A DNA stretch of 64,000 nt from an uncultured Clostridia bacterium (GCA_947591055.1 CANQCW010000002.1:96-64095); one strand, 5' to 3'; counted from the first letter of the stretch, positions 6,807-15,123 are shown. The notes: generated by a model not told the origin, from the sequence alone. Program-made: numbers and translations.

Positions 6807-6999
6807 TTTATTAATGTAAAAACTTAATAAAAATTTATATGTCTAAAATATAGCATAACGTAGGGAAAAAATCAAGAAAATAAAAATTAAAAGTATATAA
6901 AAGTTTTATAAAAAATAAAAATAAAAAATCTTATAAAAAGCTTATATAAAGCTGGTTATAGGATTTTTTACTTTTTTATTAAGTTTTTACATTAATAAA
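6807..6999. promoter_or_regulatory. putative invertible promoter element (inverton) 1, OFF orientation
   Basis: Perfect 27-bp inverted repeats 6807-6833 / 6973-6999 flank 139 bp. That core contains a minus-strand promoter and an A-run/hairpin/T-run terminator (6923-6969). Confidence 0.6.
6847..6875 (-). promoter_or_regulatory. sigmaA-type promoter with extended -10, inside inverton 1, pointing away from the pilin-like gene
   Basis: Minus strand reads TTGATT (6875-6870), 17 nt, TGCTATATT (6855-6847). The hexamers are conserved in the two paralogous elements while the spacer sequence diverges. Confidence 0.6.
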
Positions 7000-7218
7000 A
7001 ATAACATAATATAAAAATGGAGGGGGTAAAACAAATGAAATGTAAGAAAATACAAGAAAGAAAAAAGATTAATTTAAAGTTGCAAAATAAGGAAAAAGTA
7101 CAAAAATTAAAAGAAAAAGGAATAACTTTAATAGCGTTAGTAGTAACAATAATAATATTGTTAATTTTAGCAGGAGTAACATTAAATATGGCAATATCAG
7201 GAGATGGTCTATTTAGCA
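6992..7218 (+). repeat. direct repeat copy A (5' UTR + leader/TM coding cassette of the pilin-like family)
   Basis: About 227 bp that differ from 8492-8717 at only about 3 positions (one G indel in the RBS and two substitutions). Identity drops sharply on both sides. Confidence 0.85.
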
Positions 7219-8162
7219 GAGCAAGAAATGCAGCAGACAAGTATAAAAAAGCACAAGAAGATGAAGCAGACTTAATAAGTGAAATAGGAAAGGAAATGAA
7301 TAGCGAATATGTTGGAGCATATATAACAGGATATACTCCAACAAGTGGTTCATGCACAATAACAGAAAAACAATCAGGAACAGGTGTACCTCAAACATTT
7401 ACAACTACTAAAGAACAAGAAAATGAAGAAGGATTAAAATGGAGAATTTGGGATTACGATGGAACAACATTAAGAATAATATTAGATGGAACAACAACAC
7501 AAAAATTAGAACTAAAAGGAGCAGCAGGATATAATAAAGGAGTATGGGCAATAAATGAAGTTTGTAGACAATGTTTTGGTAATAAAGAGATGAAAGGAAT
7601 AAGTGTAGCAAATTTAAGAAGAAGTGATATACAAGAAGTAAGTACATATGATTATTCTAATTGGAGTCATGGAGCTAATGATTGGCGTGAATCGACAGAA
7701 GAAAATGATGAAAATATTAAATTGGGATTTGCAAAATCATATTCTAATGAAAATACTGATTATCCAACAATGTGGTTATTGAATGATAAAAAATGGACAT
7801 ATGAGTATAAAAATAAACAAGGAATTGGAGACGATAAAGAATGTTTAATTTGGGAAAATGAAGGAGTAAGACTTGAAACTTTAAATGATACAGGAAAAGG
7901 TAGCAATGGTGAAATTCTCAAACAGTCAGGTTATGACCATGATTATTCTAACAAGCAAAATGAGTTCAAGAATAGACTTTATTATAGTTTAATTTTTGGA
8001 AAAGGAGATGAGAATAGTCAATGCGGGAATTATTGGTTAGCCGGTCGTTCTGTTACTATGTATCAAGATACTTATGATTTTGATATGCAACATATTGTGT
8101 CTCAAAATGATAAGTGTGCTGTTACTGGTACATATTTATTTAATCCAAATATAGACCGGTAA
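7035..8162 (+). CDS. pilin-like / signal-anchored surface protein paralogue P1 (apparent 3' frameshift; coding seems to continue to 8292)
   Basis: RBS GGAGGGGG lies 8 nt before the ATG at 7035. The N-terminus has a basic 28-aa leader, then KG-ITLIALVVTIIILLILAGV (prepilin-like hydrophobic segment), then SGDGLFSRARNAA. C-terminal region contains NYWLAGRSV. Confidence 0.6.
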   Translation: MKCKKIQERKKINLKLQNKEKVQKLKEKGITLIALVVTIIILLILAGVTLNMAISGDGLFSRARNAADKYKKAQEDEADLISEIGKEMNSEYVGAYITGYTPTSGSCTITEKQSGTGVPQTFTTTKEQENEEGLKWRIWDYDGTTLRIILDGTTTQKLELKGAAGYNKGVWAINEVCRQCFGNKEMKGISVANLRRSDIQEVSTYDYSNWSHGANDWRESTEENDENIKLGFAKSYSNENTDYPTMWLLNDKKWTYEYKNKQGIGDDKECLIWENEGVRLETLNDTGKGSNGEILKQSGYDHDYSNKQNEFKNRLYYSLIFGKGDENSQCGNYWLAGRSVTMYQDTYDFDMQHIVSQNDKCAVTGTYLFNPNIDR

Positions 8163-8307
8163 TGAAAGAGAATCTCAGAAGAGCTTTAGTCTTAGACCGA
8201 TTGTTTCAATTGATTTAGATGAAAGTAGATATAGTTTAGAAAAAGTTGAAGATAAAGATAAAGGAACTTTTTTTAAATTAACACAGAATTAATTATAAAA
8301 AATTTTA

Positions 8308-8496
8308 ATTAAGTTAAAAGCTTAATAAAAAATTAAGATATAAAAAATATAGCATAGTAAAAGGATAAAATCAAGAAAATAAGAATAAAAAAATATATAA
8401 CAATTTGATAAAAATAAAAAAGAAAAAATCTTGTAAAAAGCTTATAAAAAGCTGATTATAAGATTTTTTTAATTTTTATTAATCTTTTAACTTAAT
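8308..8496. promoter_or_regulatory. putative invertible promoter element (inverton) 2, OFF orientation
   Basis: Inverted repeats 8308-8331 / 8473-8496 are 23/24 complementary and flank 141 bp. The core holds a minus-strand promoter, TTGATT (8374-8369)-17-TGCTATATT (8354-8346), and a terminator-like hairpin at ~8423-8470. Confidence 0.6.
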
Positions 8497-8717
8497 AAAA
8501 ATAACATAATATAAAAATGGAGGGGTAAAACAAATGAAATGTAAGAAAATACAAGAAAGAAAAAAGATTAATTTAAAGTTGCAAAATAAGGAAAAAGTAC
8601 AAAAATTAAAAGAAAAAGGAATAACTTTAATAGCGTTAGTAGTAACAATAATAATATTGTTAATTTTAGCAGGAGTAACATTAAATATGGCATTATCAGG
8701 AGATGGACTATTTAGCA
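8492..8717 (+). repeat. direct repeat copy B (5' UTR + leader/TM coding cassette)
   Basis: Near-identical to 6992-7218. Confidence 0.85.
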
Positions 8718-9764
8718 AAGCAAAATTAGCAGCAAATAAATATAATGTAGCAAGTGAACAAGAAGTATTACAACAACAAATAATAGAATATCAAATGGAT
8801 AATAGTGTAGCTAAAATAGGAGAAAAATTGTCAAACAATTCAACAGATAATCCTAGTTGGACAATAATAAAGCTAAGAAATGAAAATAAACAATATGGAA
8901 CAAATTACAACTATGTAAAAGAAGGAACAGAAATAGAGGGTTATGGAACAACAAAATACAATTGGGTAATAAATTATGAAAATGGAGAAGCTATTCAATT
9001 AGATGATTATATAAAAGTATCATCAGGAGAGGGAGTGTCAGTAACAGAAAATTTAGAGTTAAATATAAATCCAAAAAGTATGGCAAATTTAGATACACTT
9101 GGTTCAGGAGTAACATTTGTAAATGGACAAGACTCGAGTTCTTCAGGAGAGTTTTTAAAAGGTTCTTACATAGAATTTGATGGAAAAGATGATTATTTAA
9201 GACTTGATGGAGTCAAAGTTGATAATAATGGAGGAATCACTTTTGAAATTTTTGGAAAGAAAAATGATAATAAACAAGTTTTTTCTCTAAATAAAACTTT
9301 ATTTGAAGAAGATAAAATTGCTTTGCGTGGGACAACGTTTAGAAGTCATTTTAATCAAAATTGTTTCAGTTGCTGTTTAGGTAATGGAAAAGCTCGGTGG
9401 TGAATTTCAAAGTAAGTCTTCAAATTCTGAACATTGGATGGATTTTGATGGAGAAAATTTGATAAATAGTGAAGATGGAAGTTTTTATTTGACAATGACA
9501 TTAAACTTAGAAGATAATGCAGTTAGTTTATATTCTTTAGGCTCATGTATAGGTAAGAATATATGTAATGAAAATTATCTGGATTCAACGTTAATTTGTG
9601 ATAGTTCTATTCCATTTACCGTTGGTGTTCTTGTAAGCGGTTCCACGATGAATATTCAGTACAGTAATTTTTTACTATACGGATGCAGATTATATGACAG
9701 AGTGTTGAGTGCAACCGAAATTAAGCAGAATTATGATGCTTCTAAAAATCTATTGGATTCCTAG
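8534..9764 (+). pseudogene. pilin-like surface protein paralogue P2 with C-terminal LamG-like domain, split by a frameshift near 9381-9401
   Basis: Same leader/TM as P1. ORFs 8534-9403 and 9384-9764 overlap by 20 nt in different frames. A single concanavalin/LamG-like domain spans both: GSYIEFDGKDDYLRLDG...GGITFEIFG upstream and LYGCRLYDRVLSATEIKQNYDAS downstream. Confidence 0.6.
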
Positions 9765-14151: not shown

Positions 14152-14165
14152 TGTATGTTAAAATA

Positions 14166-14203
14166 AAAAGTTGTGTATCTTTTAAAGTAGGCACAACTTT
14201 TTC
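14166..14203. terminator. rho-independent terminator after adh (bidirectional)
   Basis: AAAAGTTGTG-16 nt-CACAACTTTT followed by T residues, with an A-run upstream. Confidence 0.65.
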
Positions 14204-14245
14204 ATATTATAAGTATGTAAAAGAAAGCAAATTGAGAAAGAAATA

Positions 14246-14440
14246 TTTTATTAATGTAAAAACTTAATAAAAATTATTATATTAAAAAAATAGCATAATA
14301 TAGGGAAAAATTCAATAAAATAAAAATTAAAAGTTTGTAATAATTTAATAAAAAATGAAAAGTAAAAATCTTATAAAAGGCTTGAGTAAAGCTGATTATA
14401 AGATTTTTTACTTTTTTATTAAGTTTTTACATTAATAAAA
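14246..14440. promoter_or_regulatory. putative invertible promoter element (inverton) 3, OFF orientation
   Basis: Perfect 28-bp inverted repeats 14246-14273 / 14413-14440. The core holds a minus-strand promoter, TTGAAT (14315-14310)-17-TGCTATTTT (14295-14287), and a terminator-like hairpin at ~14364-14409. Confidence 0.6.
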
Positions 14441-14472
14441 ATTACATAATGTGGAGGGAAGGTATAAAACAA

Positions 14473-15123
14473 ATGAAATATAAGAAAATACAAGAAAAAA
14501 ACAAAATTAATTTACATTTACCAAATAAGAAAAAAGTGCAAAAATTAAAAGAACAAGGAATAACATTAATAGCATTAGTAGTAACAATAATAATATTATT
14601 AATATTGGCAGGAGTAACAATATCACAAATAGCAGGAAGTAATGGATTGTTCCAAAGAGCAAGACAAGCAGCTGAAAAATATAAAAATTCGGCAGAAGAT
14701 GAACAAACTAAAATAGGTATGACAGAACAATATGCAAACGATTTTTCAGTATTAGGAAAAAATGCAGGAGAAAATGAAGAAGAAGATAAACCAGAGGAAG
14801 AAGAAAAAATTTATAGTACTACGTCTTATAATATATCTGCAAGTTCAACTGAATTTAAATGTACGATAGATATAAGAGGTCTTGTCCCTAGTGATTGGTT
14901 AGCAAGCCTTACAAGAGATAATATAAAAGTTGAGCCAGGTCCACTTGAAAGATGGGATAGATTTTATGGTAAATATACTCGTAGAGAATCAACATATTGG
15001 GATTATAGTGGAGGCGTAATTACTGTCCATTTAGCAGCTGGTTGGAGTACGAGTGGAGGAATACCAACAGTTTCATTAGCTCCCAAATGGGTTAAAGTAT
15101 CTGTAAAAAATACACCATGGTAA
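14473..15123 (+). CDS. pilin-like / signal-anchored surface protein paralogue P3
   Basis: MKYKKIQEKNKINLHLPNKKKVQKLKEQG-ITLIALVVTIIILLILAGV then GSNGLFQRARQAAEKY. The C-terminal domain is unrelated to P1/P2. The ATG at 14473 aligns with the P1/P2 starts. Confidence 0.6.
   Translation: MKYKKIQEKNKINLHLPNKKKVQKLKEQGITLIALVVTIIILLILAGVTISQIAGSNGLFQRARQAAEKYKNSAEDEQTKIGMTEQYANDFSVLGKNAGENEEEDKPEEEEKIYSTTSYNISASSTEFKCTIDIRGLVPSDWLASLTRDNIKVEPGPLERWDRFYGKYTRRESTYWDYSGGVITVHLAAGWSTSGGIPTVSLAPKWVKVSVKNTPW

Follow-up and report, generated by a model that had tools for sequence, protein, structure and literature searches.

Putative promoter-inversion switches, sharing one new recombination-like site, before a dispersed family of pilin-like genes in uncultured gut Clostridia

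A 64,000-nucleotide (nt) stretch of DNA from an uncultured rabbit-gut Clostridia bacterium (GCA_947591055.1, CANQCW010000002.1:96-64095; "the window" in what follows, always at its full length) contains, at 6807-8292, 8305-9764 and 14247-15123, three modules of common design: a pair of inverted repeats, followed by one of three paralogous genes. The window DNA is low in guanine plus cytosine (~26%) and carries GerA-type germination genes, SpoIIP and an hrcA-grpE-dnaK-dnaJ operon; its host is a spore-forming member of the Clostridia. An initial annotation, made from the sequence alone, had read the modules as a phase-variation regulon in which each of three genes of a pilin-like family has its own switch. 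The one-switch-per-gene arrangement is as that annotation described it; the number of switches, the nature of the proteins and the meaning of two frameshifts turn out to be other matters.

The three modules are copies of a repeat unit of ~460 nt, comprising ~209 nt of non-coding and then ~250 nt of coding DNA (Table 1). Homology among the units begins exactly at the gene-distal repeat arm and extends through the first ~80 codons; to the left of the distal arm their DNA does not align. The arms are 27-28 nt long, perfect in switches 1 and 3 and co-varying in switch 2, and enclose an interior of 139-141 nt; the 27-mer arm occurs four times in the window and not once in 100 dinucleotide-preserving shuffles of it. 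Proceeding toward the gene, one passes the distal arm, a predicted promoter on the opposite strand, a hairpin, the proximal arm, a leader (~20 nt conserved, then a GGAGG ribosome-binding site, RBS) and the start codon (at 7035, 8534 or 14473).

Table 1. Features of the three switch-plus-gene modules, and two kinds of gene found near switches at related loci (L numbers). ORF, open reading frame; aa, amino acids.
Feature	Position	Strand	Description
Switch 1 distal arm	6807-6833		core TTTATTAA-T-GTAAAAAC-TTAATAAA-AA; perfect 27-nt inverted repeat with 6973-6999; paralogue homology begins here
Switch 1 predicted promoter	6847-6875	-	TTGATT-17 nt-TGcTATATT; would fire left, away from gene 1 (OFF)
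Switch 1 hairpin	6914-6980		A-run on one side, T-run on the other; predicted bidirectional terminator-like insulator (RNA fold)
Switch 1 proximal arm	6973-6999		inverted repeat with distal arm
Gene 1 with RBS	RBS 7019-7026, ATG 7035, to 8162	+	RBS GGAGGGGG; 375 aa
Displaced gene 1 C-terminus	8161-8292	+	~43 codons in +1 frame; motif LRPIVSIDL
Switch 2 distal arm	8305-8331		imperfect repeat; spacer variant GTTAAAAGC
Switch 2 predicted promoter	8346-8374	-	TTGATT-17-TGcTATATT; away from gene 2
Switch 2 proximal arm	8473-8499		imperfect repeat; spacer variant GTTAAAAGA
Gene 2 ORF1	8534-9403	+	289 aa
Gene 2 ORF2	9384-9764	+	126 aa; +1 frame, overlaps ORF1 by 20 nt
Switch 3 distal arm	14246-14273 (27-nt core 14247-14273)		28 nt, perfect
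Switch 3 predicted promoter	14287-14315	-	TTGAAT-17-TGcTATTTT; away from gene 3, in register with switches 1 and 2
Switch 3 proximal arm	14413-14440 (27-nt core 14413-14439)		28 nt, perfect
Gene 3	14473-15123	+	216 aa; intact
PF12784 genes	L031 620-1000; L047 583-1377; L061 497-1715; L062 2390-2968; L085 22-659		
FxLYD genes	L010 1184-1651; L003 915-1427; L099 72-533	L010 -; L003 -	

An alignment of 63 copies from the window and related genomes yields the promoter motif TTGAyT-17-TGcTATATT: the -35 box and the TG-extended -10 box are conserved to 0.9-1.0, the 17-nt spacer between them to just 0.3-0.7, and the upstream flank not at all. The hairpin of switch 1 folds with -22.3 kcal/mol when read from the + strand and with -19.0 kcal/mol from the - strand, presenting a stem plus U-run on either; its stems are preserved in 57-62 of the 63 copies, with a few compensatory changes. 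By eye, no convincing gene-facing promoter is to be seen. In the assembled orientation all three genes are most likely silent, as had been proposed: the predicted promoters point away from them, and the hairpin would meet transcripts arriving from upstream. (Just past gene 3, at 15104-15156, lies a weak, 72%, match to the promoter region that resembles a decayed or deleted module.)

How far does this design extend? Exact matches to a degenerate form of the arm, TTWATTAAKKTAAAARMTTAATAAAAA, scanned for in one genome per GTDB species, place it at 72 loci, nearly all of them in metagenome-assembled genomes (MAGs) of uncultured rabbit-gut Clostridia. One such MAG, Lapin-015__bin75 (bin75 for short), whose housekeeping genes are 96-97% identical to those of the window, contains 50 complete arm pairs together with ~15 lone arms at contig or block ends, and its complete pairs all share a TTWATTAA-N-spacer-TTAATAAA core. 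The three loci and eight combinatorial surface states of the initial annotation are thus far too few. In a survey of a defined human gut community the Clostridia-like bacteria had a median of 3 invertons per genome, and the highest number, 181, belonged to Mitsuokella (PMC11892184). The 50 switches of a single MAG stand far above that median. A site consensus shared by many dispersed switches is, moreover, what marks a regulon under one master recombinase.

An element present in dozens of copies per genome, with 27-nt terminal inverted repeats, a total length of ~193 bp and a tendency for contigs to break at it, invites comparison with miniature inverted-repeat transposable elements (MITEs) of the Correia or RUP kind: has a MITE with an outward-directed promoter simply spread through these genomes? 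The placement of the copies speaks against it. All 63 switches that can be oriented by an adjacent gene lie at a similar distance from a family gene (mostly ~100-145 nt to a conserved coding motif; at L010 and L003 the switch stands before an FxLYD-domain gene that in turn precedes the family gene), and every copy shows homology in the gene-side flank (untranslated region, RBS and 80 codons); what has been duplicated is thus the switch together with its gene. A few other copies (L023, L049, L050 and remnants) are placed differently. The three window modules show no target-site duplication, and at L010 (described below) the outermost bases of the arms stayed with their flanks, where a re-inserted element would not have left them. 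Searches of Rfam, phage contigs and plasmids returned nothing that accounts for the region: phage contigs give isolated single arms and no paired cassette, and the cassette similarity search of plasmids was empty. A MITE is very unlikely, and the least credible of the explanations weighed here.

The arms themselves are more informative. Read from outside to inside, an arm is TTTATTAA-N-GTAAAAAC-TTAATAAA-AA, that is, two inverted 8-nt half-sites flanking an asymmetric spacer. Over positions 10-27 the two arms of a switch differ by 0.11 mismatches, versus 1.05 between switches, a degree of matching reached in 0 of 5000 permutations of the 63 switches; one and the same inner 18-nt sequence is common to 35 of the 63. 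There are at least nine spacer variants, including GTAAAAAC, TTAAAAAC, GAAAAAAC, CTAAAAAC, GTAAAACC and TTAAAAGA, each occurring in both arms of the switch that has it. Within-switch matching is absent from positions 1-9, whose bases are arm-specific. At position 3 every proximal arm has T, and 33 of 63 distal arms have A; at position 9 G prevails among the proximal arms (56 of 63) and T among the distal ones (43 of 63). Recombination sites such as lox and FRT require the spacers of partner sites to be identical across the crossover region. To judge by its sequence signature, the covariation of the arms is the pattern expected of partners that need identity across a crossover, and not of paired operators, and the 8-nt, asymmetric, co-varying spacer suggests a tyrosine recombinase in particular. 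Paired operators are the essence of an altogether static account, in which the palindromic sites flank a terminator and a divergent promoter, as a fixed cis-regulatory module, and bind a DNA-looping repressor, flipped copies being rare evolutionary accidents. The pair of 8-nt palindromic half-sites in each arm could indeed suit a dimeric DNA-binding protein; a looping repressor, however, needs neither inverted nor co-varying asymmetric spacers, and a promoter so well conserved but fixed in place would transcribe unconserved upstream DNA alone.

The arm consensus is also kept in more distant MAGs (L049 51-232, L050 51-243, L023 2873-3075 and L091 ~2700-2980) around interiors that differ (128-149 nt) and with spacers that differ too (GTAATAAAC in L091, for example); the window's cassette thus represents one form within an older and more diverse family of sites.

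Has the interior actually turned over? The first set of loci provided 80 arm pairs, of which the 63 orientable ones are, without exception, OFF like those of the window. Exact-protein look-ups (AsnRS, P0011, P0101, P0024, P0099 and P0070) added thirty-odd further instances, likewise OFF. A sequence pattern specific for the ON junction, capable of picking up 38 of the 63 switches once they have been flipped in silico, has a single natural match: L010, in bin75, where the switch precedes an FxLYD-domain gene and then a pilin-like gene. Compared with the homologous locus L003, its gene flank is collinear (71% identity) and its 190-nt switch aligns in reverse (76%), so that a TTGATT-17-TATATT promoter faces the gene. 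The outer arm bases at L010 are unchanged (TTTATTAAG on the gene side, TTAATTAAT on the far side); having stayed with the flanks, they put the breakpoints within arm positions 10-27. Two near-orthologous contigs, L099 and L100, encode an FxLYD protein 93% identical to that of L010 behind the same leader; they begin 8-10 nt inside the interior, and the hairpin end is the one beside the proximal arm, the OFF arrangement. A second flipped copy emerges from L021 (MAG Lapin-028__bin79), which ends at the inner edge of a proximal arm and has a 77-nt overlap with the start of L050. In the joined sequence the leader and gene align forward with L091 and L053, the interior runs in reverse against both (for L091, 78% over 190 nt, E=1e-37), and a TTGTTA-17-TGaTAAATT promoter faces the gene. 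A protein search for the L021 gene returned nothing. L049 resembles a third case, with its gene cut off. On the strength of these alignments, inversion at the arms appears to have occurred repeatedly within the family, at homologous loci in related MAGs. The proposal that these are inversion switches is in that sense supported for the family; at the three window loci themselves, flipped copies did not turn up.

(A technical note on contig ends: contigs frequently start or stop at or in a switch, as do L089, L090, L099, L100, L111, L118, L021/L050, L064 and others. Ends lying exactly 50 nt before an arm, which would fit an assembly k of 77, were considered as a signature of mixed orientation and rejected: L012 and L018 share a flank in the same orientation, so that breaks there point to paralogue repeats, and contig breaks alone are not evidence of mixed orientation. 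The ON-specific pattern was also run against a metagenome contig collection; the 0 matches are uninformative, the arm itself having only 9 stray single matches there, which indicates that the lineage is absent from that collection.)

The interpretation that we favor, with a probability of roughly three in four, is that the modules constitute a large promoter-inversion regulon, a set of invertons of the Mpi/RecV kind, built on a new site and serving an uncharacterised cargo family. In the OFF state the promoter would fire away from the gene, and the hairpin would block read-through. Site-specific recombination between the inverted core sites would turn the 139-nt interior around, the crossover falling within positions 10-27 of the 27-nt site and the 8-nt spacer having to match between partner arms. 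In the resulting ON state the start codon would follow ~75 nt downstream of the promoter, and the terminator would lie behind the promoter. One recombinase encoded elsewhere would serve every copy, the three of the window and the at least 50 of its close relative, and at any given time a cell would probably have one member of the family, or a few, expressed. The activity of the promoter, the reversibility and rate of inversion, and the identity and class of the recombinase are what we infer. Many invertible promoters served by one unlinked recombinase are known from Mpi of B. fragilis and RecV of C. difficile (PMC5903667).

Several considerations weigh against this. ~90 switch instances are OFF and just 2 (perhaps 3) are ON. 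The three window loci are base-for-base identical, and OFF, in four independent assemblies (that of the window and three others from ENA), with no inversion at any of them, and the two orientations of one identical locus, with full interior, were never found across the assemblies surveyed. The right flanks of L003 and L010 are non-homologous, and the OFF assignment of L099 and L100 rests on the 8-10 nt already referred to. Promoter and terminator are predicted from consensus and conservation: a generic promoter scan returned 70 sites against 60.7 expected and is uninformative in DNA as AT-rich as that of the window, so the promoter call rests on conservation. The recombinase, finally, is hypothetical. 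In favor of the static, operator-based account are the single orientation of ~90 instances, which holds for the same loci across several samples, and the failure to find a recombinase in ~680 kb of related DNA. Against that account, the flipped copies break exactly inside the arms, and their promoters land at the standard position before the RBS; taken together with the co-varying spacers noted above, this makes a static module a decidedly unlikely alternative.

Recombination at the arms need not, in principle, have anything to do with promoters. The sites might be points of crossover between loci, where shuffling, deletion and large inversions among paralogues diversify or relocate the genes. 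The identity of the inner 18 nt in 35 of the 63 switches makes such exchange chemically possible, and there are traces that could be read this way. Synteny between the window and bin75 breaks at the right edge of a 4.8-kb block that adjoins the distal arm of switch 2, L112-L115 being further examples, and solo and half sites exist: at L014 (640-666) a solo arm is joined directly to the conserved gene-side leader, and at L007 (489-582) a half-switch, consisting of distal arm and promoter, lies beside the asparaginyl-tRNA synthetase gene; both look decayed or deleted. The block itself (window 3478-8314) is extra DNA holding a GH57 enzyme, a DUF4912 protein, a nucleotidyltransferase, switch 1 and gene 1; in relatives (L038 2994-3041, L112-L115) a flavoprotein gene is followed directly by switch and family gene, without it. 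That the edge of the block falls at a switch suggests rearrangement or insertion at switch boundaries. An invariant promoter and terminator nevertheless fit an ON/OFF switch and would be superfluous for shuffling, and the paired arms are inverted, at a fixed spacing of 139 nt. Exchange between loci in place of promoter switching is accordingly very improbable; exchange alongside switching may occur.

Where, then, is the enzyme? The window holds no tyrosine- or serine-recombinase-like ORF, as the initial annotation had noted; each long ORF is otherwise identified, by Pfam or by eye. Searches by phmmer with Hin, XerD and FimB as queries (of limited sensitivity) matched nothing in the window and ~680 kb of related loci, and recombinase motif expressions matched nothing in the window and L001-L084, enzymes of the DEDD/Piv type lying outside the coverage of these searches. 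The ~8 kb beyond either end of the window, available from other assemblies and included in the ~680 kb, contain no recombinase. No linked recombinase having been found in the window or the ~680 kb, we infer an unlinked one that would serve the switches, if they work, and the annotation's suggestion of a trans-acting enzyme encoded elsewhere survives on that footing. One other kind of gene was considered. Genes of the PD-(D/E)XK family PDDEXK_2 (Rpn-like putative transposase, PF12784) occur near switches in five loci (Table 1), 45-420 nt from an arm in four of them and ~1.7 kb away in L062. No switch accompanies a further copy (L095 12644-13504), which lies near mutS just past the window's right end. 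As switch-linked candidates these genes were set aside: the link is not established, given a copy with no switch nearby.

What is being switched, if switching it is, remains to be described. Genes 1-3 share only their first ~80 residues, their C-terminal domains being unrelated. The common N-terminus consists of a basic leader of 28 residues, the sequence KG/ITLIALVVTIIILLILAGV and then a helix; in gene 1 the 28-residue leader is followed by KG/ITLIALVV, a hydrophobic helix and an alpha/beta head. The cargo protein has 1922 database homologues (E<=0.001), none of them named or provided with a Pfam domain, the best being 60-63% identical. Is it a pilin? The N-terminus resembles one, and to that extent the earlier designation stands. 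The N_methyl profile (PF07963), however, scores 16.4-16.9 bits, below its cut-off of 21.2, and the residue at +5 is Ala in place of the Glu of a class III signal. NCBIfam yields nothing significant, only weak hints of a GspG N-terminus (E 0.03-0.04). An AlphaFold (AF2) model of gene 1 (mean predicted local distance difference test score, pLDDT, 82.9) has long helices at 5-54 and 59-92 plus the alpha/beta head; a Foldseek search of the PDB with this model found no match at E<=0.001 (best E 0.27, template-modeling score, TM, ~0.1), and thus no recognizable resemblance to solved pilins. The window encodes no prepilin peptidase and no assembly ATPase. "Pilin-like" accordingly describes the N-terminus and nothing more; the tests that were run do not place the cargo in the type IV pilin family. 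Display at the surface and anchoring in the membrane are probable. Switches also precede a second type of cargo, a small protein with an FxLYD domain and a membrane anchor (NF038353, E=9e-9), whose gene comes before a pilin-like one; the P0129 FxLYD loci have no such switch. The window also has, at 11576-11782, a 68-codon ORF with a pilin-like N-terminus (MKREEGVTLITVAITIIILG), weak GspG and N_methyl hints and no switch, directly upstream of a FIST-domain gene (11804-12961).

Two of the three genes are frameshifted, which had been put down to relaxed selection on silent copies or to storage of variants. The frameshifts are present, base-for-base identical in the three independent ENA assemblies; their interpretation has to be divided. 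In gene 1 the last ~43 codons are in the +1 frame after 8160 and bear the family motif LRPIVSIDL, with which intact homologues of 416-423 aa end; this break has the look of a recent frameshift. With gene 2 matters stand otherwise. The bin75 orthologue (L038, ~1554-2777; 89.5% nucleotide identity) has both ORFs just as in the window, without a single indel in 1233 nt, and the ratio of nonsynonymous to synonymous substitution rates (dN/dS) between the two is 0.17 for ORF1 and 0.43 for ORF2, so that both ORFs are under purifying selection. This contradicts relaxed selection or variant storage as the reading of gene 2; on this comparison, decay is less likely than a programmed +1 frameshift or a true gene of two ORFs.

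A more ambitious construction can be placed on these facts. The cassettes of a surface-antigen system of >50 genes might be "addressed" by their 8-nt spacers: spacer identity would limit the partners with which an arm recombines, allow subsets of switches to operate independently, and protect the chromosome from scrambling; the enzyme would be unlinked and possibly non-canonical, Rpn-like PD-(D/E)XK genes being neighbors of several switches; and outward transcription from an OFF cassette into the upstream paralogue could add a measure of mutual exclusion. We regard this as an outside chance.

Some other features of the window and its surroundings may be recorded. A cell-wall polysaccharide cluster (26253-46389), with DUF4422, LytR/CpsA/Psr and GT2/Wzy proteins recognized by Pfam, and LicD, a flippase and UDP-galactopyranose mutase recognized by eye only, has within it a pyruvate-formate-lyase-like glycyl-radical enzyme (42492-45237; Pfam) and, after it, an ORF that by eye looks like the corresponding activase: an unusual combination. 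An ORF of 2569 residues (49113-56822) is, by eye, a secreted surface protein. Just past the left end of the window are genes for an adhesin-like PA14/MucBP protein and for a ToxN toxin (L092 35-2602 and 4828-5331).

If the preferred interpretation, a promoter-inversion regulon, is correct, then an uncultured gut Clostridia bacterium with a small genome devotes dozens of private switches to a single hypervariable surface family, which would point to a major antigen facing the host or its phages; and the >80 related sites with their spacer variants would make up a natural set from which to read the site rules of a recombinase. How does such a system compare with those already known? In B. fragilis, Mpi is cited as the one recombinase acting upon invertible promoters in at least 13 regions, at capsular polysaccharide and other loci (PMC5903667). 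The resemblance is considerable: dispersed invertible promoters with one inverted-repeat consensus, alternative surface structures, mostly OFF, and a recombinase gene that does not lie beside most Mpi loci. The differences are three: 1) the cargo of the window is one family of paralogous proteins, while that of Mpi is polysaccharide operons; 2) 50 complete switches are found in one related MAG, and the switch and the 5' end of its gene are duplicated as one cassette; 3) Mpi is a serine recombinase, while the co-varying 8-nt spacer of the window-type site suggests a tyrosine enzyme. RecV is a tyrosine recombinase encoded elsewhere that inverts several segments upstream of surface and motility genes (PMC5903667). 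The RecV switches of C. difficile (cwpV/Cdi1, flgB/Cdi4 and cmrRST/Cdi6, among others) share with the present ones a host in the class Clostridia and short segments flanked by inverted repeats. In C. difficile, however, there are seven sites, whose cargo genes are unrelated and whose inverted repeats are mostly so, whereas the sites of the window family all have one 27-nt core and one cargo family.

In fimS of E. coli, served by FimB and FimE, a short invertible segment flanked by inverted repeats likewise carries the promoter of a pilus or fimbrial gene, and the recombinases are of the tyrosine type; but fimS stands alone, its inverted repeats measure 9 bp and its recombinase genes lie next to it, whereas the present system has many loci and 27-nt sites, with no recombinase gene adjoining. 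The vsa genes of Mycoplasma pulmonis (HvsR) and the vpma genes of M. agalactiae (Xer1) are large families of variable surface proteins with a conserved 5' end, subject to site-specific recombination, of which one or a few members are expressed. Inversions in these mycoplasmas move a single expression site among silent genes of one locus, in which the recombinase gene also resides; each gene of the window family has, instead, its private promoter cassette, and the loci are dispersed. Promoter inversion by a recombinase acting in trans is thus a well-known mechanism; what is new is the site, which would serve an uncharacterised family of proteins.

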